64,000 nt of DNA from an uncultured delta proteobacterium (GTDB taxonomy: Bacteria; Desulfobacterota; Desulfobacteria; Desulfobacterales; UBA2156). Numbering within the stretch: position 1 is the first letter of the stretch; each line of letters starts with the position of its first letter. The stretch spans positions 38,521 through 102,520 of the forward strand of contig CAVOQY010000004.1 in the NCBI GenBank assembly GCA_963698465.1. Direction: 5' to 3'. Made by a program: the position numbers and the translations under genes. This document shows positions 11,348-54,975 of the stretch, in pieces. A model generated the notes under the pieces. The model saw nothing but the letters and a program-made list of their open reading frames with translations, did not search any database and was not told where the DNA came from.

Positions 11348-11348
11348 G

Positions 11349-16414: not shown

Positions 16415-16451
16415 GGGCCCTTCTCTCGCTTTCTTCCCTTTGGACCGAAAA

Positions 16452-17399: not shown

Positions 17400-17402
17400 C
17401 GA

Positions 17403-17849: not shown

Positions 17850-17854
17850 ATTTA

Positions 17855-17918
17855 AACCCTTTTTTACCACTTTATACCACTTGAAGCGCATAAAAACCGA
17901 TTTTACCCTGCATGTCAA
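17855..17918 (-). promoter_or_regulatory. Pmra-like sigma70 promoter plus three phased MraZ-box direct repeats
   Basis: The minus strand reads TTGACA (17918-17913), 17 nt, TTTTAT (17895-17890), then CAAGTGGTAT-AAAGTGGTAA-AAAAGGGTTT (about 17884-17855). That is, three G/A-T/G-GGT cores at 10-nt spacing immediately upstream of the mraZ ATG. Confidence 0.55.
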
Positions 17919-25646: not shown

Positions 25647-26622
25647 ATGTCCAGGTTTGCCTTTTCATTCGGGATTATCCTGTTCGGTCTTTCCTCCGGT
25701 TATGCGATCCAGCAACTTCACCGGCATCATCGAATCCGGCTCCCCATTCCCATCGATTCCCTCAGGAAATTACTTCAGCAGATCGCGCTTTTGTTTCTCA
25801 ACCCCGTGGCCATTGTCGGCGCCGTTTGGACTGTGAAACTCAAGGATCCTGAGCTGATGGCCCTCCCTTTTATCGGCCTCTTTGCGCTGGTGGCCGGCGG
25901 CCTCCTTGCCCTGGCGGCCGCCCGCATCCTCCATCTGGAACCCCGGAAAACAGGAGCCCTCTTCGGGTGCGGGTCCTTCACCAACATCGGCTCCATCGGC
26001 GCCTTGGTCTGTTTTGTTTTTAGGCGAGGCCGGTTTCGCTCTGGTCCCGATTTACAAGCTCTTTGAAGAAATATCGTATTATTCCATCGGCTTTCCCATT
26101 GCCAAGTATTTCAGTGGGGCCGAGTCCGGGGATATACGCCTCGCCGATCGCCTGAAGCGCTTCACCCGGGATCCCTTCATCCTTGTGGCACTGACCAGCA
26201 TCATCGCCGGTGCTTTGCTGAACGCAGGCGGTTTTCATCGACCCGAAGGGTACGCCGGCGTCATTGCGATCTTCGTTCCCCTGGCAACGGTGCTGCTTTT
26301 GGCCTCCATCGGATTGGCACTGCGCTTTTCACGGGTCGGAAACTACCTGAGAGAGTGCCTGAGCGTCTCCTTCATCAAGTTCCTCCTGGTCCCGTCGGCC
26401 GCCACGACATTGGCCTATTTTCTCGGTTTGGGAGGCATCGACGAGGCCCTGCCGCTCAAAGTGGTCCTGATCCTGTCCTCCATGCCGGTGGCTTTCAACG
26501 CGCTCATTCCGCCTTCCCTTTACGACCTGGATGTCGATCTCGCCAACTCCTGCTGGCTGGTGACGACGGCCCTTTTGGGAATCGTCTTGCCTTTGCTTTT
26601 GACCGTTATCCAGCTTTTTTAA
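25647..26622 (+). pseudogene. AEC-family (auxin efflux carrier-like) transporter interrupted by a +1 frame change
   Basis: The N-terminal half is in one frame (25647-about 26021, MSRFAFSFGIILFGLSSG...GSFTNIGSIGALVCFV). The C-terminal half is in the +1 frame (about 26020-26622, LGEAGFALVPIYKLFEEISYYSIGFPI...LLTVIQLF). The junction is the T5 run at 26017-26021. Confidence 0.65.
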
Positions 26623-26672: not shown

Positions 26673-28289
26673 ATGAGCACCCAAAGCCTCACCGCCGTCC
26701 TCATCGATCCCGTCCGCGGGGACCTGCAGGCCCGTTCGGTGCACTTCGATTCAAAGTATCCGGCCTATGGGACCGAAAACGGTGTGCTCCGGGCGCCCGA
26801 CCCCCAGATCGTGCACGCCGATCCACGCATGTGGGTCGAAGCCCTGGACGATATGTGCGCCTGGCTCAAGAAACAGCGCCTCTCAGGAAAGATTCGGGGG
26901 ATCGGCGTTTCGGCGCAGCAACACGGAACGGTCTATCTGAAGCCCGGTGCCTTCGAAGTTCATAGCAGGCGTCACTCCCGCACGACCCCTTTCCGGGCAG
27001 ATCCACGGTATTTTTTCCCGGCAGCACCAGCCCGGTCTGGATGGATTCCAGCACGTTCAAGGAATGTGAAGAAATCACCGTTGCTCTCGGCGGTGACAAA
27101 GAGGTGGCGGCACGGACCGGGTCCATCGCCACCGAGCGCTTTGCCGGACCCCAGATTCGCAAGTTCTGGAAGCAAGAGTCCGATGCGTATGAGAACACCG
27201 CCCACATCGCCCTCATCAGCTCTTTCATCACCTCGATTCTGATCGGCCGGCCCGCTCCCGTGGATGCCGGGGACGGCTATGGAACCAATTTGGCCGACAT
27301 CCGGACCGGATCCTGGAGCCGGCAAGTCCTTGAACGGGTCGCCCCCGATTTGCAAAAACGGTTGCCCGAGCTGAAAACTTCCGACGAAGTCGCAGGCCCG
27401 GTGTCCGCTTACCTGGTCCGTCGCCATGGCTTTTCCCCAGAGGCGAAAGTCGTCATCGGTTCGGGGGACAATCCTTCCAGCCTGGTCGGACTGGGCTTGC
27501 TGGGGAAAACGGCCATCCATGCCATCAGCCTGGGAACCAGCGACACCTATTTCGGCTACCTTCCCCGGCCTGCGCCCAGGACGGGAAGAAACGGCACACC
27601 TCTTCGGTACCGCTGACGGAAAGTACATGTTCTTGATCTGCTTCCAAAATGGAAGCCTGGCCCGAAAACGGATAAAAGACGCCTACGGCCTGGACTGGCG
27701 GACGTTTTCCGACATCCTGCTCCGGACGCCGACCGGGAACGGGGGCCGGATTCTCCTGCCTTATTTTTTCCCGGAGATCACGCCGAAGGTGACGAATCCG
27801 TGTGTCCGCCGATACGGCGGACTCGATCCGTCGGATCCGGAAGGCAATGTCCGCGCCGTCATCGAGGCCCAGGCCATGGCCATGTATCTTCACTCCTTTT
27901 GGATCGGCATCCGACCCCAAGAGATTCTAGTGACCGCCGGTGGATCCCAAAACCCGGGCCTGATCCAGGTGCTGGCGGACGTTTTCGGCATACCTGTTCA
28001 TGCCTGCTCGGTCAGGGAGAGCGCCGCACTCGGAGCGGCATTCCGGGCTGCCCGGGCGTGCCGCCAGAAAGATGAACATCCCCTTGAATTCGAGGATCTT
28101 TACCGGATCTTTCTGAGCATGCAGGTCCTTCTGACTTCCCATCCTTCTCCCCGGGCCGCCGCGCTCTATCGCGGAAAGGAAGGACTGTTGGAAATTTACC
28201 GGGACTGTGAAAGACATGCCCTTCGTGCCGGAGATCCCCCTTTTCAGCGGATCAAGGCTTTCCAAAAACGCCTCTCAAGTCTTCCCTGA
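26673..28289 (+). pseudogene. xylB: FGGY-family D-xylulokinase (eukaryote-like XylB type) with three +1 frame changes
   Basis: Colinear segments lie in three frames. Segment 1, 26673-about 26960: MSTQSLTAVLIDP...GVSAQQHGTVYLKPGAFEV. Segment 2, about 26962-27031: IAGVTPARPLSGQIHGIFSRQHQP (my translation). Segment 3, about 27033-27580: VWMDSSTFKECEEI...GDNPSSLVG...LGTSDTYFGYLPRPAP. Segment 4, about 27582-28289: EETAHLFGTADGKYMFLICFQNGSLARKRI...TAGGSQNPGLIQVLADVFG. Confidence 0.75.
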
Positions 28290-28342
28290 CCGCGTGAATT
28301 TTCTGTCCTGGCAGGGTCGGCCCCTTACGATCCATTTCTTTC

Positions 28343-41474: not shown

Positions 41475-41731
41475 CGTCTTCCCTTAATTGACGCTTTTCC
41501 TTCAGTGGTTCGGTTGTATAGGAAAAATGTCAGCAGGAGTCAAGGTCATTTCCGTCAGATCCCCTATTTTATAAGGATTCCGGAAAGCCGCCTCCAGGGA
41601 CCCGTTCCTCCTTTTTCCGGTTATCCTTGATCCCCGAGCCGGTTTGTTATACGAAGGGTTCTTCGAGGGAGGGGCGTTGGCGTTTCCTGCAGGCCCCTCA
41701 TGGAAAAACCCCCAACCATTGGAAGCCTGAA

Positions 41732-43606
41732 ATGCCAACGAGAGCTTACTGGGCCGACACTTACGTGGAAAAACGACGTCAAGGCCGGGATGCCATCCGG
41801 AAGATCCGGCCGGGCCAGAGAGTCTTCATCTCGTCTTCCAGCGGAGAACCCCAGCACCTGGTCCGCCTGCTGGCGGAGGAAACCAACCGCTTCCCGGACA
41901 TCGAGATCGTCAGGCTCTTCAGCACGGAGAGCGTCCCGCTGAGCCTGATCGCCAACAAGGGGCAAGGCCAGAGCCTCACCATCCGATCTTTTTATCTGGG
42001 ATCGGCCAAGGCGAAAGGGATCCAGCGAAACAAGCGCTTTATCACGCCCATCAACCTTTCCGCCATCCCACGGCTCTTTAAAACGCGGAGAATGCCCATC
42101 CATGTGGCCTTGATTCAGACCACCCCCCCCGACGATTTCGGCTGGATGAGCCTCGGCGTTTCCGTGGACATCACCCTGGCAGCGGCCACCTCCGCCGATC
42201 TCGTCATCGCCCAGATCAATTCCAAAATGCCCAGGGTCCTGGGAAGAAGCTTCATCCACGTCAACGATGTGGACGTGATTGTGGAATACGACGAAAATCT
42301 CCTCACCCTCGGCCCCCAACCGGAGCTGGAATCGGCCAATATCATCGGCAGGCAGGTGGCCCGCCTCGTGGATGACGGATCGACCATCCACGTCAGCCTC
42401 GGAGCCACCCACCAGGCCACCCTTCTGGGCCTTTCCAAAAAAAACGATCTCGGCGTACATTCCCAATACCTCACAGACGACATTTTGCACCTGTTTTCCA
42501 TGGGGGTCATCACCAACCAGAAAAAAGGATTCAACGAGGGAAAACTGGTGGCCAGCAGCGCCGTGGGATCCGAAAACCTTTACGAATTTTTAAACGACAA
42601 TCCTGCCATCGATTTCCAGCCGTCCGATTACGTCAACGATCCGGCCATCATTTCCCGGCATCATAAAATGGTCTCCATGCACGTCGCCATGACCATGGAT
42701 CTCACCGGCCAGGTCTCCGCCGACGCCCTCCCACACAACAACTTTTCAGGGGTCAACGGCATGCTCGACTTTGTCAGAGGGTCGGCCCTGTCCGAGGGAG
42801 GAAAATCGATTCTCATGCTGACCTCTACGTCCAGGGATGGGAAGAAAAGCCGCATCGTTCCCTTTCTGTCCGACGAAGCCGTGGTGGTCCCCAGGGGGGA
42901 TGTCCAATACGTCATCACCGAGTATGGGGCGGTGAATCTGTTCGGCAAAAGCCTCCAGGAAAGGGCCATGGCCATGATCAGCATCGCTCACCCCGATTTC
43001 AGGGACGAACTGTTCTTCGCGGCCAAAAAGCTGGGGATCCTCGACGCCGGGAGAAAGCGCCCCGACTTCTCCCGCGGCGTCTACCCGCTCAAGCTCGAGG
43101 AGACCCGGATCATCGACGATCAGGAAGTGGTCATCCGTCCGGCAAAACCGGTGGATGAAAGGCGGATCCAGGAGCACTTCTATACCCTGGAAAAAGACGA
43201 CGTGGTTTCAAGGTTTTTCCACGAGAAATCGGCCTTCATGCGGGATGAAATCGAAGGGCTTTCCCAGATCGATTATATCAACGACCTCACCCTCGTGGCG
43301 GTGGTGGGCGAATTCGGGTTCGGCCGGGTCGTGGGCATCGGGGAATACCTGTTGGACCCGGCGAAAAACATCGCGGAGGTGGCCTTTTCCATCAGCAAGG
43401 ATTTCCAGGGAAAAGGCATGGGAAAAATCCTGCTTTCCAAGCTGGCCGAGGCCGCCCGGGAAAACGGGATTACCGGCTTCATCGCCTACACGTCCCCCCA
43501 AAACCGCGGCATGATCAACCTGTTTAAAACTTTGCCTTTCAAGACCCAAACCACCTTCGACAGCGATGTCCTCATGTTGACCTGCCGGTTCGACGAAAAG
43601 CGATAA
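41732..43606 (+). CDS. acetyl-CoA hydrolase/transferase-family domain fused to a C-terminal Pat-type GNAT acetyltransferase domain
   Basis: Residues 1 to about 450 have FISSSSGEPQHLV and FSGVNGMLDFVRGSALSEGGKSILMLTSTSRDGKKSRIVP (CoA-transferase family). Residues about 460-624 have VVIRPAKPVDERRIQEHFYTL...SRFF...LSQIDYINDLTLVAVV...AEVAFSISKDFQGKGMGKILL (GNAT). ATG at 41732. Confidence 0.85.
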   Translation: MPTRAYWADTYVEKRRQGRDAIRKIRPGQRVFISSSSGEPQHLVRLLAEETNRFPDIEIVRLFSTESVPLSLIANKGQGQSLTIRSFYLGSAKAKGIQRNKRFITPINLSAIPRLFKTRRMPIHVALIQTTPPDDFGWMSLGVSVDITLAAATSADLVIAQINSKMPRVLGRSFIHVNDVDVIVEYDENLLTLGPQPELESANIIGRQVARLVDDGSTIHVSLGATHQATLLGLSKKNDLGVHSQYLTDDILHLFSMGVITNQKKGFNEGKLVASSAVGSENLYEFLNDNPAIDFQPSDYVNDPAIISRHHKMVSMHVAMTMDLTGQVSADALPHNNFSGVNGMLDFVRGSALSEGGKSILMLTSTSRDGKKSRIVPFLSDEAVVVPRGDVQYVITEYGAVNLFGKSLQERAMAMISIAHPDFRDELFFAAKKLGILDAGRKRPDFSRGVYPLKLEETRIIDDQEVVIRPAKPVDERRIQEHFYTLEKDDVVSRFFHEKSAFMRDEIEGLSQIDYINDLTLVAVVGEFGFGRVVGIGEYLLDPAKNIAEVAFSISKDFQGKGMGKILLSKLAEAARENGITGFIAYTSPQNRGMINLFKTLPFKTQTTFDSDVLMLTCRFDEKR

Positions 43607-43654
43607 GCGGTTTTGGGCTGTCGGGCCCCATCCGATACGGAGCAAGAAATCCCT

Positions 43655-45604
43655 ATGCACAAAATTCTTTTTTTACCCCATCAGAAGGAAGTCCAGGTCC
43701 AGGACGGGGAAAATCTCATCCGGGCGGCCCTGGAAGCCGGCGTTCACATCAACGCCTCCTGCGGCGGTGCGGGCATCTGCGGCAAGTGCCGGGTGATCCT
43801 CGAAAAGGGACAGGTGGAAGGAGGCCTCTCCGAAAAATTGACCCGGGAAGACATTGAAAAAGGATACCGTCAGGCCTGTCTGGCCTCCGTCGTGGACGAC
43901 CTGGTGGTCCGGGTTCCGGTGGAATCCGAAATCGATGTCAGTGTCCTCAATGCGCAAAGCATCCCCCGGAAAACCGCCCGTATCCAGGAAATGAACCTGG
44001 AGGAGCTCAGGGAAAAGGGCCTTTTCGTCCCCCCGGTGGAAAAGAAATACCTGGAACTGGCGCCGCCTTCGGTCCAGGACAACCTGCCGGATGCTTCCCG
44101 CCTTCTCGGCTTCCTCAATCTGGCCCATGACGAACACCGGCTGGAGGTGGACCTGTCGGTGCTGCGAAAGATCCCGGACGTCCTGAGGGATGGGGATTTC
44201 AAGGTCACCGCCACCCTGGCCCGCCCGGTCCGAGAAATCGACGGACGCACCCGAATCGTCAACGTCCAACCCGGGGACACCACCGCCCGCAATTACGCCA
44301 TCGCCATGGACATCGGGACCACGACGCTTTACGGTCAGCTCCTTGACCTGAGAAGCGGCGAGGTATTGGCCCAGTACGGCGATTTCAACGGGCAGATCAG
44401 CTACGGAGAGGATGTCATCAGCCGGATCGTCTATGCGGAAAAACCCGGGGGGCTGGAGAAGCTGCACCAGGTGGTGGTCGATACCATCAACAGGATCATC
44501 CAAAAGCTTTTCCGGCATGCCCGGATCGAACGGGATGAGGTTTCCACCATCACGTTGGCCGGCAATACCACCATGACCCAGCTTTTGTTGAAGATCAATC
44601 CCAAGTATATCCGGCGCTCCCCCTACGTCCCCGCCTCCACCCTTTTCCCTCCCATCCGGGCCGTGGACCTGGGGATCGACGTGGGGGACCCTGTGACCGC
44701 CCTGTTCTATCCGGCGGTCTCCAGCTATGTGGGAGGAGACATCGTTTCGGGCGTCATGGGCTCCGGGATGTACCGCTCGGAAGCCCTGTGCCTGTTCATG
44801 GACATCGGAACCAATGCGGAAATCGTCATCGGAAACAAGGACTGGCTCGCCTGCGCAGCCTGTTCCGCAGGGCCTGCATTCGAAGGGGGCGGCATCCAGT
44901 TCGGCATGCGGGCGACCAAGGGCGCCATCGAGGACTTCTCCATCGACCCTGTCACCCTGGAGCCCATGATCCTCACCATCGGCAACGTAAGGCCCAAAGG
45001 GATCTGCGGCTCCGGATTGATCTCCGCGGTGGCCACCCTTTTCGAAACAGGGGTCATCAGCAACTCCGGGAAATTCGACCGGAGCCTGGGCTCCCTCCGG
45101 ATTCGGGAAACCGACGGGGTGGCGGAGTTCGTCCTGGCCTTTGCCGACGAAACCCAGATCGGCCGCGACGTGACCCTGACGGAACCGGACATCGACAATC
45201 TCATCCGGGCAAAAGGGGCCCTGTTCAGCGGCTGCATGACGCTTTTGGAAGAGGTCGGCCTGAGCCTGGCCGACGTGGAACGGATCTATCTCGCCGGCGG
45301 TTTCGGAAGCTACGTGGACCTGGAAAAGGCCATGACCATCGGCCTCTTGCCGGAAGCGGACCCGGAAAAGGTCGTCTACGTGGGAAACGGCTCCCTCATG
45401 GGGGCCAAAATGAGTTCCCTGACCAACCGCATCCGGCGTGACGTGGTGGAAGTGACCCGGAAGATGACCAACTTCGAGCTCAGCGAAACCTCTTCCTACA
45501 TGAACCACTACATCGCCGCGCTTTTCCTGCCCCATACGGACATGGAACGCTTCCCTCGGCTTCAAGAGCGCCTGAGGGCCCGAAACGCGCTTCAAAAACA
45601 ATAA
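43655..45604 (+). CDS. acsV: corrinoid activation/regeneration protein (RACo/AcsV-type: [2Fe-2S] ferredoxin + ASKHA ATPase)
   Basis: The N-terminal plant-type ferredoxin motif is SCGGAGICGKCRV. The ASKHA phosphate loop is AMDIGTTTLYGQL, followed by FMDIGTNAEIV. It lies next to the CFeSP genes. Confidence 0.85.
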   Translation: MHKILFLPHQKEVQVQDGENLIRAALEAGVHINASCGGAGICGKCRVILEKGQVEGGLSEKLTREDIEKGYRQACLASVVDDLVVRVPVESEIDVSVLNAQSIPRKTARIQEMNLEELREKGLFVPPVEKKYLELAPPSVQDNLPDASRLLGFLNLAHDEHRLEVDLSVLRKIPDVLRDGDFKVTATLARPVREIDGRTRIVNVQPGDTTARNYAIAMDIGTTTLYGQLLDLRSGEVLAQYGDFNGQISYGEDVISRIVYAEKPGGLEKLHQVVVDTINRIIQKLFRHARIERDEVSTITLAGNTTMTQLLLKINPKYIRRSPYVPASTLFPPIRAVDLGIDVGDPVTALFYPAVSSYVGGDIVSGVMGSGMYRSEALCLFMDIGTNAEIVIGNKDWLACAACSAGPAFEGGGIQFGMRATKGAIEDFSIDPVTLEPMILTIGNVRPKGICGSGLISAVATLFETGVISNSGKFDRSLGSLRIRETDGVAEFVLAFADETQIGRDVTLTEPDIDNLIRAKGALFSGCMTLLEEVGLSLADVERIYLAGGFGSYVDLEKAMTIGLLPEADPEKVVYVGNGSLMGAKMSSLTNRIRRDVVEVTRKMTNFELSETSSYMNHYIAALFLPHTDMERFPRLQERLRARNALQKQ

Positions 45605-45646
45605 AGGGGAGAAAAAAATTAAATTCCATTCAGTTTGCCTAACCTG

Positions 45647-45673
45647 TTGACAAGCCGGAACTCCAACTATAAA
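45647..45673 (+). promoter_or_regulatory. candidate sigma70 promoter for the acsD-cooS-acsB-acsC-acsE operon
   Basis: TTGACA (45647-45652), 15 nt, TATAAA (45668-45673), in the AT-richer 297-nt gap. The spacing is shorter than the 17-nt optimum, so this is tentative. Confidence 0.3.
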
Positions 45674-45901
45674 AGGTATCCTTTGTGTCAGAATCCTGAA
45701 AAATCGCTTTAAAACCCTCAAAAGAAAGACTTTCGACAGGCGCCACGGCCAGCCGAGGAGCATGAAATCGCCCGGTAAAGGGCATAAGCATATCGAAATC
45801 CACATCTGGAAAGGAGGCGGTTGAGCGCGAAAAGGAAAACAAGCGTGACAGAGGGATTGATCATCCACAAAAACCTTAACACTGTGATTTAGGAGGGAAC
45901 A

Positions 45902-47224
45902 TTGGGCTTTGCATTTTATAAAGAGAGTTACACCGGCAAAATCAAGGAGATCACCATCGGCAAAGGCGATACGTCGGTGAAGGTGGGAGGGCAGAATTGC
46001 TATCCCTTCTACCTGTTCGAGGGGGAGATGCCCAATAGGCCCAAGATCGCCATGGAGGTCTGGGACATGGAACCCGAAGATTGGCCGGAATCCGTTCTTT
46101 GCCACTTCAAGGACGTGGTCTCGGACCCGGCTGCCTGGGCTAAAAAATGCGTGGAAACCTTCGGTGCCGAAATCATCGTCCTCCAGCTCAAGAGCACGGA
46201 CCCAAACGGCAAGAACGCCGGAGCCGCCGAGGCGACCCAGACGGTGAAAAAAGTGAGCGCAGCCGTCAAGGTGCCGCTGATCGTCTGGGGATCGGCCAAC
46301 CCGCAAAAGGACGAGGAAGTCTTCAAGAAAGTGGCCGAAGATTGCCAGGGTAAAAACATCACCCTCGGGCCTGTTGAAGATAAAAACCACAAGGGGATCG
46401 GTGCGGCGGCCATGGGCTACGGACAAACCTTGATCGCCTCCTCTCCCATCGATGTGAACCTGGCCAAACAGGTCAACATCCTTCTGGAAAACCTGGGCGT
46501 GCCCACGGACAAGATGCTCATCGACCCCACCACCGGGGGTCTGGGATACGGCCTGGAATATTCCTATTCCGTCATGGACCGGATCCGGATGGCGGCTTTG
46601 ACCCAGGGCGACGACAAGCTCCAGCTGCCCATCATCAACAACCTCGGAAACGAGGTTTGGAAATGCAAGGAAGCCAAGGAGTCGGCGGAATCGGCTCCTA
46701 CCCTTGGAGACCCCGAAAAGCGGGGCGTGCTCATGGAAGCCGTCGGGGCCGTCAGCTACCTCATGGCAGGATCCGACATCCTCATCATGCGGCATCCCGA
46801 AGCCATCCGGATGGTCAAGGCTTTCATCGGGTTGGCCATGGAGGGAGGATCCGCCCAGAAGGCCACTGCCATAGAAAAAGCACTTCCCGCCGCTGACATC
46901 GATTATGCGGCACTGGCGCCGGCTCCCGATCTGAGCATCCAGGCGGAAAAAGAGAAAAAAGCGGTACCGGCGGAAAAGAAAGCCCCTCCCAAGGCGGCCG
47001 AAGCTCCCAAAGCCGCACCCAAGAAAGCCGCACCGGCACCGCCGAAACCCGCAGAAAAGGAAGCGGTAAAGCCCGCAGCGGAAGCCAAGCCTGTGGACAA
47101 GGAAGCCGAAGCCAAGGCCCAAGCCGAGGCACAAAGCCCAAGCCGAGGCTGCGGCCAAGGCCAAGGCAGAGGCGGAAGCCAAAGCCAAGGCCCAAGCCGA
47201 GGCCAAAGCCAAAGCCGACGCTGA
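45902..47224 (+). CDS. acsD: corrinoid iron-sulfur protein small subunit AcsD/CdhD-type, with a low-complexity C-terminal extension
   Basis: The TTG start follows AGGAGGG. The core of about 316 aa is colinear with AcsD as I remember it ([21 protein letters not shown]...[24 protein letters not shown]...[14 protein letters not shown]). It is followed by a Pro/Ala/Lys/Glu-rich tail. The annotated stop at 47222 lies inside a repeat, after an apparent frame break near 47135. Confidence 0.85.
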
Positions 47225-47462
47225 AGCAAAGGCCCAAGCGGAAGCCAAAGCCAAAGCCGACGCTGAAGCCAAAGCCCAGGCCGAAAGGGAGGCACGGGAA
47301 GAGGCCATCCGGGCCCAGAGGGCCAAGGAAAGGGAAGCTCTTGCGGCGAAGCGGTCCACCGTGAAAAAAGCGAAAGTCCCGGCAACAGCGGCCGCCGAGC
47401 AGAAATCCATGGCGGACAAGCTCATCGATCGTCTGAACCGGATCCACAGAAGGATCGCGTGA
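47136..47462 (+). other. +1-frame continuation of the AcsD tail (108 codons with no start codon of its own)
   Basis: My translation of frame 0 from 47136 is [108 protein letters not shown], then stop (TGA 47460-47462). It continues the [11 protein letters not shown] motif that the acsD frame carries up to 47134. Confidence 0.6.
47154..47285 (+). repeat. GCC-AAR-rich coding tandem repeat; two 42-nt units at 47202-47243 and 47244-47285
   Basis: The units are gccaaagccaaagccgacgctgaagcaaaggcccaagcggaa and gccaaagccaaagccgacgctgaagccaaagcccaggccgaa. They differ at 4 synonymous-looking positions. A more degenerate copy sits at 47154-47201. Confidence 0.85.
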
Positions 47463-47538
47463 TGGGTGGCTCCCAACAGAATAAAACCCGATTATTTTCA
47501 ATCTGAAAGCATATTTTAATAACGAGGAGGAACCTCTG

Positions 47539-49563
47539 ATGGCAGAAGAAATCAAGGAAAAAGTTAAAAAACTTGCAGACCCGATTGCGTCTTCGATCGA
47601 TCCAGGCACTCAGGAGATGATTGCCCGGGCGCAGCAGTTGGGCATCGACACCGTATTCGACCGTGCGGCCGCCATGAAGCCCTGCAACATCGGGATTCAA
47701 GGCATCTGTTGCAAAAACTGCGCCATGGGTCCTTGTCGGCTCCCGCTCACCAAGGACGTGGATCCGGAAAACGACACCCGGAAAGGGCTTTGCGGCGCCA
47801 CCGCCAACACCATCGCAGCCCGCAATTTCGCCCGTATGGTGGCCTCCGGCGCCGCCGCACATTCGGACCACGGCCGCTGCGTGGCCGAGGTATTCCTATC
47901 CGTGGCCCGCAAGGAAACCGATGCTTACAAGATCAAGGATCCGGTTAAACTGCTCTCCATCGCACCGCACCTCGACGTCGCCACTACCATTGAAGTGGAT
48001 GGAGAGACCCAGGATCGCAACATTGATGAGATCGCCCTGGAAGTGGCCGAAAAGGCCCTAAACGAATGGGGCAAGGCCGAAGGCAACCTCTACTATCTGA
48101 AGCGGGCTCCCGTGCCGCTCCAGGAGAAGTGGGAAAAAGCCGGGGTGCTGCCGCGGAATATCGACCGCGAAGTCGTGGAAATCATGCATCGAACCCACAT
48201 GGGCGTGGATCAAGACTACAAGAACATCATCAAGCAATGTACCCGCTGCTCCCTGGCCGATGGTTGGGGAGGATCCATGCTCGCCACCGACCTGCAGGAT
48301 GTGATGTTCGGCACGCCTTATCCGCTGCAGGCCGAAGCCAATCTGGGCGTGATGAAGGCTGATCACGTCAACATCATCGTGCATGGACACGAACCGGTGC
48401 TTTCGGAGATGATCGTTGCCACCGCCCAGCGCAAGGATATGATCGAGTACGCCAAATCCAAGGGCGCCAAGGGAATCCAGCTTGGCGGCATCTGCTGCAC
48501 GGCCAATGAAATTTTCCAGCGCCACGGTGTACCCCAGGCAGGAACTTACCTGCAGCAGGAGTTGGCCATCATCACCGGCGCCTGCGACGCTATGGTGGTA
48601 GACATCCAGTGTATCTTCCAGAATCTCGCCAACGTGGCCAAATGCTTCCACACCAAACTGATCACCACGCACCCGATTGCCAAGATGGAACAGGATAACG
48701 TAGTACACATCGAATTCGACGAACACCATGCTGTAGAAGATGCGGAAAAGATCGTCCGGATGGCCATTGACAATTTCCAGAATCGCGGCGCCGATGTGAT
48801 GATCCCGCCCTACAAATCTCAGGCTGTGGGGGGCTTTGGCGTGGAGTCGATCCAGTACCACCTGGGCGGCACCTTCCGTGGCACGTATTATACCCTGAAC
48901 GACAACATCATCAACGGCCGCATCCGGGGCGTAGCCGGTGTTGTGGGCTGCAACAACGCCCGCACGCGCCACAACGAAGCACACATTATGGTCGTCAAGG
49001 AGTTGATTAAAAACGACGTGATCGTCCTGACCACCGGCTGCAACGGAATCGCCTGCGCCATGGAAGGACTGCTAACACCCGAATCCGCCGCCGTGTTCTG
49101 CGGGCCGGGCCTTAAAGAGGTGTGCGAAACCGTCGGCATCCCGCCGGTGCTGCACCTGGGTTCCTGTGTGGACAACAGCCGCATCCTGCTGGCGGCCACG
49201 GAAGTGGTCAATGCCGGCGGCCTGGGCAAAGACCTCTGTGACCTGCCTGCTGCCGGGAGCGCCCCCGAATGGATGAGCGAAAAAGCCATCAGCATCGGGC
49301 AATATTTTGTCAGCTCCGGTGTCTACACGATATTCGGGTTGCACCTGCCTACTTCCGGAGCCCCGATATTCCATAACTACCTTTCCAAGGAGATGGAAAA
49401 GCTTTACGGCGGCAAGTGGGATCTGGAAGCAGACCCCATCAAGCATGCCCAGAAGATGATCGCCCATATCGACGCCAAACGAAAAGCCCTGGGTATCGAC
49501 AAGGCCCGGGAACGGCAGCTCATGGATATGGCGGACCGCCAGAAGCTGGAAGCCAGCGCTTAA
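47539..49563 (+). CDS. cooS: anaerobic Ni,Fe carbon monoxide dehydrogenase catalytic subunit
   Basis: A 674-aa protein with N-terminal Cys clusters (KPCNIGIQGICCKNCAMGPCRL, GLCGATANTIAARNF) and AAHSDHGR. It is adjacent to acsB. Confidence 0.95.
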   Translation: MAEEIKEKVKKLADPIASSIDPGTQEMIARAQQLGIDTVFDRAAAMKPCNIGIQGICCKNCAMGPCRLPLTKDVDPENDTRKGLCGATANTIAARNFARMVASGAAAHSDHGRCVAEVFLSVARKETDAYKIKDPVKLLSIAPHLDVATTIEVDGETQDRNIDEIALEVAEKALNEWGKAEGNLYYLKRAPVPLQEKWEKAGVLPRNIDREVVEIMHRTHMGVDQDYKNIIKQCTRCSLADGWGGSMLATDLQDVMFGTPYPLQAEANLGVMKADHVNIIVHGHEPVLSEMIVATAQRKDMIEYAKSKGAKGIQLGGICCTANEIFQRHGVPQAGTYLQQELAIITGACDAMVVDIQCIFQNLANVAKCFHTKLITTHPIAKMEQDNVVHIEFDEHHAVEDAEKIVRMAIDNFQNRGADVMIPPYKSQAVGGFGVESIQYHLGGTFRGTYYTLNDNIINGRIRGVAGVVGCNNARTRHNEAHIMVVKELIKNDVIVLTTGCNGIACAMEGLLTPESAAVFCGPGLKEVCETVGIPPVLHLGSCVDNSRILLAATEVVNAGGLGKDLCDLPAAGSAPEWMSEKAISIGQYFVSSGVYTIFGLHLPTSGAPIFHNYLSKEMEKLYGGKWDLEADPIKHAQKMIAHIDAKRKALGIDKARERQLMDMADRQKLEASA

Positions 49564-49614: not shown

Positions 49615-51831
49615 ATGTCTAGACTCGTTGCATTTGCCGCCATTCAGGGTGGCTACAATATTGTTTCCAAGGTCGAAGGTAAGTACAAGAGGGCGCTTCA
49701 GACTCATGATGCGTCTACCAAGGTGGGATTCCCCAACACGGCCTACTTCCTACCGGTCATCTATTCTCTCCTGGGAATGAAGGTGGAAACCCTCGAGGAC
49801 ATCCAGAAGCCGCTGGCGTTTGTCCGCAAGCTGCTTCCGCCCCACGTGAAGGGACAAAACCATCTCCCCTACCTGGGGCCCCTTTTGGATGCCGGCATGG
49901 CGGCCCTGTTCGCCTTTGAGATCGAAGAGGCGCTCCGGTACCTGGAAAACCCGGACTTCTACCTGCACTCCGAGGATATCGACGAGGAGGCGGGAAAGAT
50001 CTGGCTCGGCGCGGCCGATGACACCGTGTTCCGGAAACGGGGCGTGGAGTTCGTGGACGGATCGGCCCCCGGCTTCGCCGCCATGGTGGGCGCGGCGCCG
50101 GACCCGGAAACCGCCAAAATGATCGTGGAAGAGTATCAGCGCCGGAGCCTTTATATCTTCTGCGCCGCCAATCAGAACGGCACCACCATCATCGAGCAGC
50201 TTCTCGAGGCAGGGGTTCAGGTGGGCTGGAACACCCGGATCGTCCCCTTCGGCCCGGACATTTCCTCGGCCATCTTCGCCCTGGGCTTCGCCAATCGGGC
50301 GGCCATGGCTTTCGGCGGCATCCAGCCCGGCGACTACAAGCGGATGCTGCTGTACAACAAGAACCGGATTTTCGCCTTCGTCAACGCCCTGGGCGACGTG
50401 AACGCCGAATGGGCCGCGGCAGCGGCGGGCTGTGTCAACTGGGGCTTCCCGACGCTGGCCGACACGGACATTCCGGAAGTCCTTCCCACCGGGATCTGTA
50501 CCTACGAGCACGTGGTGGCCAATGTCCCCCATAGCGAAATGGTGCAGCGTTCCGTGGAGGTCCGGGGTCTCAAGACGACGGTTTCCACCATCGACATCCC
50601 CTGCTCCTTCGGTCCGGCCTACGAGGGCGAACGAGTCCGCGGCGGCGATCTTTACTGCCAGATGGGCGGGGGCAAGACCCAGGCTACCGAACTGGTGAAA
50701 ATGGCGGACATGAAAGAGATCGAAGACGGCAAAGTGACGGTGGTCGGCAAAGACCTCGACGAGGTTAAAGAAGGGGAAAACCTTCCCCTGGGCATCTACG
50801 TCCAGATCGCAGGACGTCAGATGCAGACCGACTTCGAGCCCATTCTGGAGCGCCAGATCCACCACCTGATCAACTATATCCAAGGGGTCATGCACATCGG
50901 GCAGCGCGACATCGCCTGGATCCGTGTGGGCAAGCCGGCGGTGGAAAAAGGCTTCCGCCTCAAGCATATCGGGGTCGTCCTGCACGCCAAGTTCCATCAG
51001 GACTTCGGGAGCATCCTGGACAAGGTTCAGGTCACCCTGTACACCAACAAGAAGGACGTGGATGCCCTCACCAAACGGGCCCGTCAGGAATACAAGACCC
51101 GGGACGAGCGGGTGGAAAACATGACGGACGAGGATGTGGAAATTTACTACTCCTGCACCCTTTGCCAGTCCTTCGCCCCCACCCATGTCTGCACCGTCAG
51201 CCCGGAACGCACCGGCCTCTGCGGCGCCTACAACTGGATGGACTGCAAGGCTTCTTTCGAAATCAACCCCACCGGCCCGAACCAGCCCATCGAAAAAGGA
51301 GAGTGCCTGGATCCGAAGCTGGGCCAGTGGAAGGGCGTCAACGACTTCATCAAAAAGGCCTCCCGGGGCGCCGTCACCCAGTACAATTTCTACTCCATGG
51401 TCAAGGAACCCATGACCACCTGCGGGTGCTGCGAATGCATCGCCGCCATGCTGCCTTCGTGCAACGGCATCATGACGGTGGGCCGGGACTACACCGGGGA
51501 AACGCCGTGCGGAATGAAGTTCACCACCCTGGCAGGCGTCATGGGAGGCGGGGCTTCCTCTCCGGGATTCGTCGGACATTCCAAGTTCAACATCACCCAG
51601 CGAAAATTCGTGAAAGGCGACGGCGGTCTCCTGCGCATGGTCTGGATGCCCAAGATCCTCAAAGAGGAGATCAAAGAGCGCATCATGAAACGGGGCGAGG
51701 AACTGGGGGTTCCCAATCTCTACGACATGATCGCTGACGAGACGGTGGGAACGACGGAAGAGGAGATTCTTCCCTTCCTCCAGGAAAAGGGGCACCCGGC
51801 CCTTTCCATGGACCCGATCATTTCCGAATAA
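49615..51831 (+). CDS. acsB: acetyl-CoA synthase (CO-methylating acetyl-CoA synthase, A-cluster subunit)
   Basis: A 738-aa protein with the Cys-Gly-Cys Ni-binding region (MTTCGCCECIAAM) and upstream Cys ligands (YSCTLCQSFAPTHVCTVSPERTGLCG). Confidence 0.95.
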   Translation: MSRLVAFAAIQGGYNIVSKVEGKYKRALQTHDASTKVGFPNTAYFLPVIYSLLGMKVETLEDIQKPLAFVRKLLPPHVKGQNHLPYLGPLLDAGMAALFAFEIEEALRYLENPDFYLHSEDIDEEAGKIWLGAADDTVFRKRGVEFVDGSAPGFAAMVGAAPDPETAKMIVEEYQRRSLYIFCAANQNGTTIIEQLLEAGVQVGWNTRIVPFGPDISSAIFALGFANRAAMAFGGIQPGDYKRMLLYNKNRIFAFVNALGDVNAEWAAAAAGCVNWGFPTLADTDIPEVLPTGICTYEHVVANVPHSEMVQRSVEVRGLKTTVSTIDIPCSFGPAYEGERVRGGDLYCQMGGGKTQATELVKMADMKEIEDGKVTVVGKDLDEVKEGENLPLGIYVQIAGRQMQTDFEPILERQIHHLINYIQGVMHIGQRDIAWIRVGKPAVEKGFRLKHIGVVLHAKFHQDFGSILDKVQVTLYTNKKDVDALTKRARQEYKTRDERVENMTDEDVEIYYSCTLCQSFAPTHVCTVSPERTGLCGAYNWMDCKASFEINPTGPNQPIEKGECLDPKLGQWKGVNDFIKKASRGAVTQYNFYSMVKEPMTTCGCCECIAAMLPSCNGIMTVGRDYTGETPCGMKFTTLAGVMGGGASSPGFVGHSKFNITQRKFVKGDGGLLRMVWMPKILKEEIKERIMKRGEELGVPNLYDMIADETVGTTEEEILPFLQEKGHPALSMDPIISE

Positions 51832-51911: not shown

Positions 51912-53252
51912 ATGGCATTAACCGGTATTCAGATCTTCAAACTCCTGCCGAAAACCAACTGCAAGGAGTGCGGCGTTCCCACCTGCCTTGCGTTTGCCAT
52001 GAATCTGGCCTCGGGGAAGGCGGAACTCGACAGCTGTCCCTACGTCTCCGAGGAAGCCAAGGCCCAGCTGGCGGAAGCCTCCGCGCCCCCCATCCGCCCG
52101 GTCGCCATCGGGAAAGGGGTCCGGGCGTTCACGGTGGGAGGCGAAACGGTGCTGTACCGTCACGAAAAGACCTTCTTCAACAAACCGGCCTTTGCGGCCC
52201 TGGTGAAATCCGATATGGACGATGCCGAACTGGAAACAAAACTGAAGATATGGAATGCCTTCCAGTACGAGCGGGTCGGGTTGAACCTGCGCCCCGAACT
52301 GATCGCGCTGAAAGATGTCAACGGCGATGCGGCAGCCTTTTCGAAAAAGGCCAAGACCATCGCCGAGACCTCGGAATTCAACCTGGTTTTGATGACGGAA
52401 GATCCTAAGGTCATGAAAGCGGGGATCGAGGCCTGCGGCTTCAAGCGGCCCCTCCTGTACGGCGCCACCGCGGCCAACGTGGAGGATTTCGGCGCCCTGG
52501 CAAAAGAAAGCGACCTGCCCCTGGCTGTCAAGTCGGATTCCATCGAGGGGCTCGTCCCGCTCACCGACAAGCTTTCGGGAATGGGTCTCAAGGACCTCGT
52601 CCTGGATCCCGGTGCCCGGGAGATCAAAAAGGCCCTCGAGGATCAGGTGGCCCTGCGCCGGGCGGCCCTGAAGGATGGAAACCGCAAGGTGGGATTCCCC
52701 ACCATCGTCTTCCCCTGCGAAATGGCCGCCAACCTTGACGTGGAGACCCTGATCGCAGCCATGTTCGTGTCCAAGTACGGAGGAATCATCGTCCTTTCCG
52801 ACTTCGCGGGAGAGACGCTGTTCCCGTTGCTTTTGGAGCGGCTCAACATCTACACCGATCCTCAGCGTCCCATGACCGTGACCCAGGGTATTTACGAGAT
52901 CGGCAAACCCGATGCCGATTCTCCCGTGCTGGTCACCACCAACTTCGCCCTGACGTACTTCATTGTTTCCGGCGAAGTGGAAGGGAGCAAGATCCCTTGC
53001 TGGCTTTTGATCAAGGACTCCGAGGGGCTTTCGGTCATGACCGCCTGGGCGGCCGGGAAGTTTGCCGGAGACGACGTGGGCATATTCGTGAAAAAAAGCG
53101 GCATCGAGGAGAAAATCAGCAAGAAGGAAATCATCATACCCGGTTACGCAGCGGCCATTGCGGGCGATATGGAAGAAGAGCTGCCGGGGTGGACCGTAAC
53201 CGTGGGTCCGAGGGAAGCGGCACACATTCCAGGCTTTCTCCGGTCCCGGTAA
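51912..53252 (+). CDS. acsC: corrinoid iron-sulfur protein large subunit AcsC/CdhE-type
   Basis: N-terminal [4Fe-4S] motif LPKTNCKECGVPTCLAFAMNLASGKAELDSCPY, followed by TIM-barrel and B12-binding regions. Confidence 0.92.
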   Translation: MALTGIQIFKLLPKTNCKECGVPTCLAFAMNLASGKAELDSCPYVSEEAKAQLAEASAPPIRPVAIGKGVRAFTVGGETVLYRHEKTFFNKPAFAALVKSDMDDAELETKLKIWNAFQYERVGLNLRPELIALKDVNGDAAAFSKKAKTIAETSEFNLVLMTEDPKVMKAGIEACGFKRPLLYGATAANVEDFGALAKESDLPLAVKSDSIEGLVPLTDKLSGMGLKDLVLDPGAREIKKALEDQVALRRAALKDGNRKVGFPTIVFPCEMAANLDVETLIAAMFVSKYGGIIVLSDFAGETLFPLLLERLNIYTDPQRPMTVTQGIYEIGKPDADSPVLVTTNFALTYFIVSGEVEGSKIPCWLLIKDSEGLSVMTAWAAGKFAGDDVGIFVKKSGIEEKISKKEIIIPGYAAAIAGDMEEELPGWTVTVGPREAAHIPGFLRSR

Positions 53253-53313: not shown

Positions 53314-54195
53314 ATGTTACTGATTGGTGAAAGCTTAAACGTCATCTCGAGGAAGATCGGCCGGGCGTTTAAGGAACGCGATCCGAAGCCGATCCAGGAG
53401 GAAGCCCTCTTCCAGCGGGAAAAGGGCATGGATTACATCGACATCAACCTGGGCCCGGCGAAGAAGGACGGTCACGAGCTCATGCCATGGGTGGTCCAAA
53501 CGGTTCAGGAGGTCGTCGACGACGTCCCCCTGGCCCTGGACACTTCGAACATCGACGCCATCGCGGCGGCTCTGAAGGTCTGTAAGCTTCCTCCCCTCAT
53601 CAACTCCATCATGGTTCGACCGGAGCGCTACGAGCGGATGGTTCCTCTGGCCGCCGAATCCAATGCGGACTTCATCGCCCTTATGTGGGGCCCCGAGGGG
53701 TTGCCCAGGGACGAAAACGAACGGGCCGCCCTCTGCGTCGAGCTGATCTATTTCGCCAATGAGGCCGGAATCCCGAACGAGAAGATCTGGGTGGACGGCA
53801 TCGTCACGCCGCTCAACATCCAACAGCCGCAGCTCATGAGCCTTTTGGCGTTCCAGCAGATGCTCCAGGACATTGCTCCGGGGGTCAAGAGCACCTGCGG
53901 GCTCTCCAATATCTCCAACGGTCCCCCGGAACACCTCCGGCCCATCTTGAACCAGACCTACATGGTCATGCTGGAAAAATACGGGATGTATTCGGTTATT
54001 TCGGATCCCCGTGACGACACGTTGACCCAAATCGCCAAGGGGAAGCGGCCGGACATCGTCGAGCTGATAAATAAGATGATGGACGGCGAGGAACCGGAAA
54101 TCGCCAGCCTTTCCAAAGAGATGCAGGATTATGCAAAGACGGTCAACGTCATCCTCGGAAAGACGCTGTATTCCGATTCCTGGCTCGAGATATAG
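53314..54195 (+). CDS. acsE: methyltetrahydrofolate:corrinoid/iron-sulfur protein methyltransferase
   Basis: Pterin-binding (DHPS-like) barrel with MLLIGESLNV...YIDINLGPA...LALDTSN...INSI...GLSNISNG. Confidence 0.9.
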   Translation: MLLIGESLNVISRKIGRAFKERDPKPIQEEALFQREKGMDYIDINLGPAKKDGHELMPWVVQTVQEVVDDVPLALDTSNIDAIAAALKVCKLPPLINSIMVRPERYERMVPLAAESNADFIALMWGPEGLPRDENERAALCVELIYFANEAGIPNEKIWVDGIVTPLNIQQPQLMSLLAFQQMLQDIAPGVKSTCGLSNISNGPPEHLRPILNQTYMVMLEKYGMYSVISDPRDDTLTQIAKGKRPDIVELINKMMDGEEPEIASLSKEMQDYAKTVNVILGKTLYSDSWLEI

Positions 54196-54360: not shown

Positions 54361-54975
54361 ATGCCCCGCATCGACGACTACATCGCCTCCCGAAACCTCG
54401 CGGCTGCCGCGCTGGCGGCACAGCCCATTGCGGACATCTCAAGCCGCACAGGATTTCCCGAGGAAAAAGAGAACACCTTCACCGTTTCCTTCCTCAACCG
54501 GACCTACCGTGTCGATTTCCCGGGCCTTTCCTTCCAGGACAAGGGGGCACCGGAAAAAGAGGTGCCCATCCAGGAACAGGTCCTGATTCTCCATTACATG
54601 ATGGGAAGCAAAGCCGGGCACCCCGAGGGCCGCTGGATCTCCTACCGGGAAATTCCGGGGGCCTCGTTTTATTACAGCGCCTTTGTCCAGAGGGCCGTTG
54701 AGCCGCTGAAGAAAGCTTTCGGAACCCGTATCGACGGCTTGAAGGCCGCTGCCGAAAAGCTTGGCGGGACCCAAGTCCCGGAAGGCGACGGCGCCTGGGA
54801 GTTGACCCCCTTCCCCAAGGTTCCGCTTCGGCTCATCCTGTGGGCCGGGGATGAGGACTTCCCTCCGGAGGCCAACATCCTCTTCGACCGCAGTATCGGA
54901 ACAATCCTATCCCCCGAAGACACGGCCTGGCTGGCCGGCATGGTGGTCTACCGGCTCATCGCCCTTTCCCGCTGA
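54361..54975 (+). CDS. uncharacterised protein, DUF3786-like, last gene of the acs cluster
   Basis: A 204-aa protein with VLILHYMMGSKAGHPEGRWISYREIPGASFYYSAFVQRAVEPLKKAFG and DEDFPPEANILFD. From memory it resembles the DUF3786 family, which tends to sit in acs/cdh clusters. I cannot verify this here. Confidence 0.55.
   Translation: MPRIDDYIASRNLAAAALAAQPIADISSRTGFPEEKENTFTVSFLNRTYRVDFPGLSFQDKGAPEKEVPIQEQVLILHYMMGSKAGHPEGRWISYREIPGASFYYSAFVQRAVEPLKKAFGTRIDGLKAAAEKLGGTQVPEGDGAWELTPFPKVPLRLILWAGDEDFPPEANILFDRSIGTILSPEDTAWLAGMVVYRLIALSR

Follow-up and report, generated by a model that had tools for sequence, protein, structure and literature searches.

A conserved C-terminal tail of fixed length on the CFeSP small subunit AcsD of Desulfobacterales, and a frame break within it that is most probably a one-base sequencing or assembly error

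The window (the whole 64-kb stretch of DNA that was analysed) carries a Wood-Ljungdahl cluster in the order acetyl-CoA hydrolase/transferase-GNAT, RACo, AcsD, CooS, AcsB, AcsC, AcsE and DUF3786, and the gene order around acsD is common to the orthologous loci L001-L003. The features of this cluster to which reference is made below are:

43613-45604: RACo
45891-45897, + strand: Shine-Dalgarno-like AGGAGGG, 5' of the acsD TTG start (direct sequence reading)
45902-47224, + strand: acsD, open reading frame with TTG start, 440 aa as annotated
45902-46849, + strand: acsD/cdhD catalytic core, residues 1-316, a TIM barrel (Pfam CdhD, E=8e-47)
47539-49563: CooS
49615-51831: AcsB
51912-53252: AcsC
53314-54195: AcsE

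The Pfam CdhD match spans residues 16-301, with a score against PF03599 of 160 bits (cut-off 24.8), and residues ~5-311 align with the solved small subunits 4DJD_D, 2H9A_B, 4C1N_B and 9FZY_E at E-values of 1e-82 to 2.5e-77. After repair of its reading frame (see below), the protein also passes the curated NCBIfam subfamily NF003377 (PRK04452.1-3, acetyl-CoA decarbonylase/synthase complex subunit delta) (653 bits, cut-off 527); the match covers profile positions 1-408 of 432, extends to residue 422 and so takes in the linker beyond the core. This model names the protein and is silent on the role of the tail. A non-ATG start is found at the equivalent position in several orthologues (P0001, P0003 and P0006, which begin LGFEFYKE). 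The acsD gene is thus an ordinary CFeSP small subunit gene of the Desulfobacterales subfamily in a canonical Wood-Ljungdahl cluster. Pfam and NCBIfam scans revealed no other domain in the tail, and an Rfam scan over the whole window gave no match.

The core ends in ...FIGLAMEGG316 and is followed by 124 more codons in the annotated frame, as the first-pass annotation had described (core end near residue 316, then about 125 codons). The same annotation had reported a jump to the +1 frame near 47132-47136 and a repaired protein of about 519 aa with a ~200-aa extension, and both observations were reproduced: the Ala/Lys/Glu register is lost from frame 0 at 47131-47135, the +1 frame beyond the break is open for 108 codons up to a stop at 47460-47462, and removal of any one base at 47131-47135 yields a protein of 519 aa with a tail of ~205 aa. 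Removal of A47131 or C47132 regains a perfect 18-nt register (AKAQAE twice), and a frame-switch scan puts the frame change at 47129. The window therefore holds no uninterrupted frame of the subfamily length (~520 aa), the protein being 440 aa as annotated and 519 aa as repaired. The features around the break are:

47131-47135, + strand: ACAAA, within which one extra base lies (deletion scan)
47133-47224, + strand: out-of-frame read-through of the annotated 440-aa AcsD, ending ...SRR, with its stop at 47222-47224
47182-47284, + strand: 42-nt tandem repeat, 2.5 copies, coding in the +1 frame (Tandem Repeats Finder score 171, 88% matches, 0% indels)

Across 47102-47285, Tandem Repeats Finder identified periods of 6, 18, 24 and 42 nt. 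The +1 frame contains no start codon able to yield a separate open reading frame of at least 50 aa. As the +1-frame continuation matches the C-termini of AcsD orthologues residue for residue, its openness is not due to chance. The out-of-frame ending of the annotated protein, on the other hand, was seen in no orthologue; the database protein P0005 is the annotated 440-aa product of the source genome, and is the sole member of its own cluster.

The first-pass annotation had named orthologues that end at the core as evidence against its reading; the opposite was found, as orthologues continue through the tail in one frame. All 118 aligned full-length sequences in a survey of the closest homologues (best 120 matches) are 509-562 aa long, and almost all homologues among the matches listed measure 504-562 aa, P0005 being the only 440-aa entry. 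Similarly, 76 of the 78 complete Desulfobacterales acsD loci encode proteins of 507-545 aa with the same terminal motif at their end (80 GTDB representative loci returned, from genomes other than the source, the best at 73% identity). In 119 sequences with ~68-87% identity to the query, the tail measures 205 +/- 4 aa. Cultured relatives that possess it include Desulfonema magnum, Desulfoluna spongiiphila and Desulfobacterium autotrophicum. Furthermore, dN/dS of the +1-frame part was 0.059 and 0.063 against L001 and L002, compared with 0.056 and 0.065 for the core, all in comparisons where dS exceeds 1; a value of ~0.06, as in the core, indicates that this part was coded in the +1 frame until very recently or still is. 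These comparisons demonstrate, at the level of sequence, that a tail of ~205 residues is the norm in Desulfobacterales, is fixed in length and is under purifying selection. The extension had been called unusual for a CFeSP subunit, which holds against the acetogen proteins of solved structure and does not hold within Desulfobacterales. The AcsD proteins of Moorella thermoacetica (4DJD_D), Carboxydothermus hydrogenoformans (2H9A_B/4C1N_B) and Clostridium autoethanogenum (9FZY_E) share with the Desulfobacterales protein the TIM-barrel core and a neighbourhood with AcsC, AcsB, CooS, AcsE and RACo, whereas they comprise the core only (309-323 aa), to which the Desulfobacterales subfamily adds ~205 residues. 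Among the complete-oxidising sulfate reducers, Desulfobacterales are the principal group in marine sediments, and an order of globally important sulfate reducers therefore possesses a CFeSP small subunit with a conserved appendage of tightly held length.

A profile of the C-terminus searched against 1.84 billion representatives found only AcsD tails or fragments of them, all listed matches ending at the protein C-terminus or a few residues short of it, and had no match in the PDB even at E<=1. No function of the AcsD tail of Desulfobacterales was found to be described in the literature searched. Apparent fusions of the tail to Maf, exonuclease III, Hsp20, NadA and DivIVA were rejected as real domain fusions, since the junctions all lie exactly in the AEAKAK repeat, which indicates chimeric assemblies. 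A second type of tail on a near-identical core (P0127), for which a single relative, a 112-aa aMBF1-like protein, was retrieved among 5.8 billion proteins, was likewise set aside as a probable chimera. Public assemblies are often broken or chimeric at the repeat of the AcsD tail.

The architecture of the tail was assessed with an AF2 model of AcsD built from a 119-sequence alignment, in which the core reaches a pLDDT of 85-97 (an earlier run with 11 sequences had given a poor core, mean pLDDT 52.7). In this model an ordered wrap is followed by a disordered linker, an Ala/Glu/Lys helix, a motif-bearing loop and a basic amphipathic terminal helix:

46850-46945, + strand: post-core segment (wrap), residues 317-348, predicted ordered (pLDDT ~64-85)
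46946-47107, + strand: Pro/Ala/Lys-rich disordered linker, residues 349-402 (AF2 pLDDT 30-37, without secondary structure)
47108-47360, + strand: Ala/Glu/Lys spacer (residues 403-486 after repair), one continuous helix in AF2
47361-47408, + strand: loop with the motif V-x-x-T-[PA]-A-A-x-Q-K-S, residues 487-502, in the +1 frame
47409-47462, + strand: terminal amphipathic basic helix, residues 503-519 (AF2 helix 503-515), with the true stop at 47460-47462

The post-core segment, with a column conservation of 2.8-3.5 bits, is missing from the solved small subunits, whose ends fall near residue 310-323. Together with the linker it has a joint length of 89 +/- 4 aa and, over the orthologues, a composition of 28% A, 15.5% K and 14.6% P. 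The stretch coding for the helical spacer (pLDDT 53-85) is the one into which the frame break falls. This block measures 83.4 +/- 2.4 aa in the 119 sequences; charged residues make up 51% of it, Ala 40% and bulky hydrophobic residues 4.6%. Opposite-charge pairs at i/i+4 occur at 0.34 per residue versus 0.12 in shuffles, and like-charge pairs at 0.035 versus 0.12. It combines the charge pairing of a single alpha-helix (ER/K-like) with the absence of a hydrophobic heptad seam, while the hydrophobic a/d positions that run throughout a canonical coiled coil were not found in the 84-residue block, an a/d-like seam being confined to the last 15 residues of AcsD (504, 507, 511, 514 and 518). The charge pattern thus fits a predicted single alpha-helix and not a coiled coil; if fully helical, as modelled, it would extend over ~12-13 nm. 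Dense i/i+4 opposite-charge pairing with few bulky hydrophobics is a feature that the predicted helix has in common with ER/K-type spacers and (EAAAK)n linkers, although it is richer in Ala and less charged than classical ER/K helices. The loop is non-helical in the model (pLDDT <50) and strongly conserved among the 119 sequences (T495 97%, A497 97%, Q500 99%), as is the terminal helix (L511 97%, H515 99%, R517 100%), which ends H-[RK]-R and has a hydrophobic moment of 0.79 versus 0.53 in shuffles.

The interpretation that we favour, with a probability of roughly 0.65 for the explanation as a whole, is that of a normal AcsD of its subfamily with a tether-type tail, in which the frame break is an artefact. 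The break is one inserted base private to this assembly and most probably an error of the consensus within low-complexity repeat sequence; a sequencing error had been among the options listed in the first-pass annotation, and is the one preferred here. It was absent from every orthologue examined, and the repaired helix block has the length of the family (84 versus 83.4 aa), which counts in favour of an artefact. Additionally, the window contains five frame breaks, that of acsD among them, and each is mended by deleting one base, which points to systematic insertion errors. The other four are:

~26017: frame break in an AEC-type transporter
26958: frame break in an FGGY kinase
27028: frame break in the FGGY kinase
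27563: frame break in the FGGY kinase

These four lie within 1.6 kb (26.0-27.6 kb) and could be true pseudogenes and not the mark of a generally error-prone assembly. Gaps in the gene map of the window were also considered as possible hidden broken genes; inspection revealed intact genes, and the count of frame breaks stays at five. Examples of these intact genes are:

4144-5156: MurB, within this interval
elsewhere in the window: MurG, MurE/F and transketolase

A further point against an artefact is that the base inserted in acsD may lie outside any homopolymer. In its favour, breaks in this tail were also seen in two other assemblies, both of which retain the canonical end in a different frame: L032, which judging by its MFD isolate name may be a long-read MAG, has two frame changes (0 to 1 and back), and L084 has a 1-nt deletion.

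Alternatively, the extra base may be a genuine and recent frameshift, such that the organism makes a 440-aa AcsD consisting of the core, the linker, eight helix residues and 30 nonsense residues, without most of the spacer and without the docking end. The base stands in the deposited sequence, the 440-aa product is recorded in NCBI/ENA, the catalytic core is untouched, and a different 1-nt change, the deletion just mentioned, is present in the tail of L084, so that tail-disrupted alleles may circulate. Against this, 108 downstream codons without a stop and a dN/dS of 0.06 would require the event to be extremely recent, the tail is kept in 76 of 78 complete orthologues, and each of the five breaks is an insertion of one base, whereas natural gene decay is expected to mix insertions and deletions. 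We consider a genuine frameshift unlikely, though it is the most probable of the alternatives; if genuine, the break is a mutation of very recent date. Programmed +1 ribosomal frameshifting, or phase variation that governs production of the tail, is hardly credible: full-length AcsD does require a +1 shift and a Shine-Dalgarno-like GAGG lies just 5' of the site (47126-47129), yet GAGG recurs across the tandem repeat because Glu-Ala is encoded by GAG-GCN, the orthologues all lack the break and are in one frame, the site has neither a slippery codon nor an in-frame stop (the next frame-0 stop is ~90 nt away), and the slippery codon with a stop or hungry codon at a conserved site that marks prfB-type +1 frameshifts was not found, nor was the long homopolymer or non-3n repeat of a phase-variable contingency locus, no homopolymer at the site exceeding 3 nt (AAA or CCC). 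Moreover, since the tandem periods are all multiples of 3, slippage by repeat units keeps the frame; the suggestions of a repeat-mediated indel and of a phase-variable site made in the first-pass annotation are both unlikely on these grounds. In terms of annotation, the 440-aa AcsD of the window is to be corrected to a protein of 519 aa or marked as frameshifted, and reads would be needed before the break is interpreted as regulation or gene decay.

With regard to the role of the tail, its composition, the conservation of its length and the monomer AF2 model lead us to infer that it may act as a tether of fixed length, the terminal motif of which would bind either a partner protein or further copies of the tail, and thereby keep the methyl-carrying CFeSP near CODH/ACS and other partners. 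The first-pass annotation had proposed a tether or scaffold, which is a reasonable reading of these data. Such a tether would be functionally comparable to the archaeal CdhD scaffold, composed of a disordered region and a coiled coil. In Methanosarcina acetivorans, the N-terminal disordered region and coiled coil of CdhD oligomerise CoFeSP and have been proposed as a CODH/ACS scaffold (bioRxiv 10.64898/2026.07.07.736967), hexamers to octamers of CoFeSP being formed through the extension (PMC13370988); according to this July 2026 preprint, the archaeal extension builds the 2-MDa ACDS complex, and such a region is generally absent in bacteria, for which no comparable arrangement is known (bioRxiv 10.64898/2026.07.07.736967). 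The two appendages are alike in belonging to one subunit of one enzyme system and in being conserved disordered extensions that end in a short helix with a hydrophobic seam. Conversely, the archaeal extension is located at the opposite terminus, lacks sequence similarity to the bacterial tail and has no counterpart of its long rigid helix. No N-terminal extension of archaeal type is present on the AcsD studied here, whose alignment to the archaeal model NF003375 starts at profile position 109 and that to TIGR00381 at position 64. It is possible, and is put forward tentatively, that the ACDS scaffold of archaea has a bacterial equivalent, evolved in Desulfobacterales in the form of this C-terminal tether (~205 aa, a ~12 nm rigid helix plus a flexible linker), which would oligomerise CFeSP or dock it onto CODH/ACS through its invariant motif (T-x-A-A-x-Q-K-S ... 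L-N-R-I-H-R-R). If true, this would imply a tethered supercomplex for acetyl-CoA cleavage, and the tail is in any case a testable candidate for the organisation of the bacterial acetyl-CoA-cleaving machinery in Desulfobacterales.

The terminal helix could instead bind the cytoplasmic membrane, with the tail holding CFeSP ~20 nm away near respiratory complexes. It is amphipathic by its hydrophobic moment, basic and situated at the extreme C-terminus, it may resemble the membrane-targeting helices of MinD and FtsA, and position 513 is occupied by Trp in place of Arg in 29% of sequences. Nevertheless, the near-invariance of T495, A497, Q500, H515 and R517 suggests specific protein recognition over generic lipid binding, and a literature search turned up no membrane-association data for AcsD; a membrane tether thus appears doubtful. 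Far less probable still is a histone-like, polyanion-binding appendage (AlgP/H1-like) or a functionless low-complexity expansion. The Lys/Ala/Pro composition of the linker (349-402) is like that of AlgP and H1 tails, which consist of Lys/Ala/Pro repeats, but the tail is not strongly basic (mean net charge over orthologues ~-1 in the linker region, +1 in the helix block and +2 at the end), and a length held within +/- 4 aa at a dN/dS of 0.06 excludes a functionless expansion. The description of the tail as TolA/AlgP-like accordingly stands for its composition, the AEAKAK-type composition being shared with TolA domain II, and fails for family membership: the match to the TolA profile TIGR02794 (34.2 bits, cut-off 59.45, E=1.6e-8) is confined to the biased region, no TolA family scored above cut-off for AcsD in the Pfam and NCBIfam scans, and the tail here is the C-terminal part of a cytoplasmic enzyme of the acetyl-CoA pathway. 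A further parallel to the favoured tether with a docking end is offered by the E2 chains of 2-oxo-acid dehydrogenases, in which Ala/Pro-rich linkers are combined with a peripheral-subunit-binding domain. While no sequence or profile relationship to these chains was found, the AcsD tail similarly places a small basic helical element after a Pro/Ala/Lys linker, the AcsD core has a mean net charge of ~-16 over orthologues, and by analogy this element might dock on an acidic partner.

Direct reading of the region and listing of its open reading frames (ORFs) placed the start of acsD as follows:

45902, + strand, TTG start codon of acsD, with AGGAGGG ahead of it at 45891-45897

Frame 0 from this codon reaches a stop at 47222-47224 and yields 440 aa, of which residues 16-301 match Pfam CdhD; the core, that of an ordinary CFeSP small subunit, ends at ...FIGLAMEGG316. 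Beyond it, the translation leaves an Ala/Lys/Glu pattern and turns into 29 other residues before the stop, and the pattern goes on in the +1 frame for 108 codons up to a stop at 47460-47462. If one base is taken out at any position from 47131 to 47135, the product has 519 aa (the repaired protein, to which residue numbers refer). The core end, frame jump, both stops (47222 and 47460) and 519-aa repair described in the first-pass annotation were thus all confirmed by direct reading, ORFs and deletions. By the ORF listing, no start codon within the +1 stretch would open an independent ORF of at least 50 aa. Tandem Repeats Finder identified periods of 6, 18, 24 and 42 nt at 47102-47285, and omission of A47131 or C47132 brings two 18-nt units into perfect register (GCN-AAR-GCC-CAA-GCC-GAG x2, i.e. 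AKAQAE x2). Judged from sequence, one inserted base is the simplest event at the break, since the helix block of the repaired protein (84 aa) then matches the family mean of 83.4 aa. A 1267-aa open frame antisense to RACo and acsD (43673-47476, − strand) is taken not as a gene but as a shadow ORF arising from GC-rich coding sequence.

When the repaired 519-aa protein was used as query in a homologue search, almost all of the best 120 homologues were 504-562 aa long. One 440-aa entry among the matches listed, P0005 (100% identity over 77% of the query, encoded on a 540-kb NCBI/ENA contig, alone in its cluster), is the annotated AcsD product of the window's own genome. Twelve homologues examined in full share a common plan, namely ...PAPDLSI-EKEKKA, a Pro/Ala/Lys stretch, (AEAKAK)n, a 19-residue segment and a C-terminal motif. 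A GTDB scan (one genome per species) returned 575 confirmed relatives, from which 80 loci were taken; the named genomes among these are all Desulfobacterales or unclassified 'delta' MAGs, including Desulfonema magnum, Desulfatitalea, Desulfosarcina, Desulfatibacillum, Desulfatirhabdium and Olavius symbionts. The encoded protein measures 507-545 aa in 76 of the 78 loci that lie complete on their contigs, and thus orthologues do not generally terminate at the core, as solved small subunits (all 309-323 aa) do. Furthermore, the repaired protein scores 653 bits against the curated subfamily NCBIfam NF003377 (cut-off 527), the match running through residue 422 and so including the linker. AcsD is therefore a member of a known subfamily, and its tail, initially regarded as unusual for a CFeSP subunit, is normal in this clade rather than special to this genome.

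Aligned over 119 sequences, the tail measures 205 ± 4 aa (range 193-214), made up of wrap plus linker (89 ± 4), helix block (83.4 ± 2.4) and end (32 ± 1.7 aa). This spread is very narrow for repetitive DNA that is free to expand or contract in frame, which argues for selection on length. Codon alignments of repaired acsD with its orthologues at L001 and L002 (86% and 81% aa identity, respectively) gave dN/dS values of 0.059 and 0.063 for the 109 codons past the break, compared with 0.056 and 0.065 for the core, with dS above 1. The similarity of these values indicates, at the level of codon comparison, that the part past the break is under selection in the +1 frame and that the tail was coding in this frame over practically the whole divergence.

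On indirect evidence, we consider the frame break to be an artefact, with a probability of roughly 70%. The break is common to no orthologue compared, and two further genes of the window are broken:

25647-26622, + strand, AEC-type transporter broken at a T run near 26017-26021, split into overlapping ORFs 25647..26066 and 25882..26622
26673-28290, + strand, FGGY-family sugar kinase with three single-base insertions, at ~26958, 27028 and 27563

Removal of one T restores a 324-aa transporter ORF with a weak Mem_trans match across the junction, while the kinase without its three extra bases has 537 aa and FGGY_N and FGGY_C domains. A frame-switch scan of the whole 64-kb window found no further switch except at gene boundaries, and apparent gaps in the crude gene map hold intact genes such as that of MurB. 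All five breaks, acsD included, are single-base insertions, and such uniformity of direction fits a systematic error of the consensus better than natural decay. Four of them lie within 1.6 kb, which could reflect a local problem (poor consensus) or true pseudogenes. That the acsD break is a genuine, very recent mutation is a distinctly less probable reading, and a programmed event is highly improbable: the site has no slippery codon, homopolymer longer than 3 nt or frame-0 stop and orthologues lack the break, so that programmed frameshifting and phase variation are unsupported. Repeat-unit slippage cannot explain a change of frame because all tandem periods are multiples of three. Among the causes initially proposed, sequencing error is therefore retained, whereas a phase-variable site and a repeat-mediated indel are not.

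The tail is also broken in assemblies of relatives. The orthologous acsD at L032:3001-4557 (isolate MFD02979.bin.2.74, a name that suggests a long-read MAG) loses frame 0 just past the core and regains it just ahead of REAEEDAIRQQRAKE..., two frame changes that leave the canonical C-terminal motif intact. At L084:1501-3015 (JGI 3300033143; P0006, 504 aa), a 1-nt deletion in the tail (CCGGCC to CCGCC) creates the false end PPPPRRNKNP, the true end being intact in another frame. Six database proteins (P0133, P0136, P0139, P0153, P0163 and P0202) carry unrelated N-termini (by sequence reading Maf, exonuclease III, Hsp20, helicase, NadA and DivIVA) followed by an AcsD-type tail, the switch falling at the AEAKAK repeat or immediately ahead of it; chimeric assembly of metagenomes, seeded by this low-complexity repeat, is their probable origin. 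The AEAKAK stretch is evidently hard to assemble, since many motif-bearing proteins are chimeras joined within it. P0127 (441 aa, in the same 90% cluster as P0001) has a near-identical core and linker and then a different end (...EIDKVAKAIGLDLDKLLAAKKCTREDIEHTAKQHNLTLEQTLKKLGGIK). In a set of 5.8 billion proteins this end has a single relative, an aMBF1-like protein of 112 aa, and P0127 is probably a chimera or an isolated fusion.

AlphaFold2 (AF2) modelling on the 119-sequence alignment (mean pLDDT 74.7; core 85-97) divided the tail into:

residues 317-348, post-core segment (wrap), ordered and conserved, pLDDT ~64-85
residues 349-399, linker, disordered, pLDDT 30-37
residues 403-486, helix block, one continuous helix, pLDDT 53 rising to 85
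residues 488-500, loop, low confidence
residues 503-515, terminal helix, pLDDT ~71

On the question of coiled coil or disorder raised in the first-pass annotation, the model predicts a disordered linker plus a continuous helix. The helix block is 51% charged and 40% Ala, with only 4.6% bulky hydrophobic residues; opposite-charge i/i+4 pairs occur at 0.34 per residue (0.12 in shuffles) and like-charge pairs at 0.035 (0.12 in shuffles). This pattern is the sequence signature of a single alpha-helix spacer and not of a coiled coil, with a predicted length of ~12-13 nm at 1.5 Å per residue. By conservation, the C-terminal end is the most specific part: 97-100% of sequences keep each of T495, A497, Q500, L511, H515 and R517. 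The terminal helix is amphipathic (moment 0.79 versus 0.53 in shuffles), with an a/d-like seam at 504, 507, 511, 514 and 518. A profile built from the final 58 residues matched 84 representatives among 1.84 billion proteins, and every match reaches the C-terminus or lies no more than a few residues from it. The matches inspected over their whole length proved to be fragments of AcsD, apparent chimeras or, in one case, a weak repeat protein (E ~5e-4); the same profile found no relative in the PDB.

In line with the 'tether or scaffold' first suggested, we infer from the documented conservation, selection and architecture a fixed-length tether whose terminal motif would dock on a partner or on itself; docking, partner and purpose are all putative. 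The closest functional parallel is the N-terminal extension of archaeal CdhD, a conserved disordered region plus short coiled coil through which CoFeSP forms hexamers to octamers and which has been proposed as scaffold of the ACDS complex (PMC13370988, preprint July 2026). The preprint describes a region of this kind as generally absent from bacteria. The Desulfobacterales tail, however, is C-terminal, lacks sequence similarity to this extension and carries an extra rigid helix; it is at most an analogue and does not belong to that class. The suggested TolA/AlgP-like character proved, for TolA, to be compositional only (34 bits versus a cut-off of 59). Searchable papers on Desulfobacteraceae genomes and proteomes mention the tail nowhere, and its interest lies in being a strongly conserved feature of the NF003377 subfamily without description in that literature.

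Among the neighbouring genes, a 204-aa DUF3786 protein (54361-54975, + strand), which follows AcsE as the last member of the acs cluster, could be a candidate for the partner of the tail. Directly upstream of RACo, 41627-43606 (+ strand) encodes a 659-aa fusion of acetyl-CoA hydrolase/transferase with a GNAT acetyltransferase domain; L001 has two separate genes instead, of 477 and 75 aa. A division and cell-wall cluster, intact wherever checked, occupies 846-17918 (− strand):

5156-6808 and 12835-14529, − strand, Mur ligases (Pfam)
6537-7898, − strand, glycosyltransferase 28/MurG (Pfam)
7673-8842, − strand, FtsW (Pfam)
~4144-5156, − strand, MurB, read from translation and missed by the crude gene caller
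within 846-17918, − strand, FtsZ, FtsA, FtsI, RsmH and MraZ, guessed solely from the sizes and order of the genes
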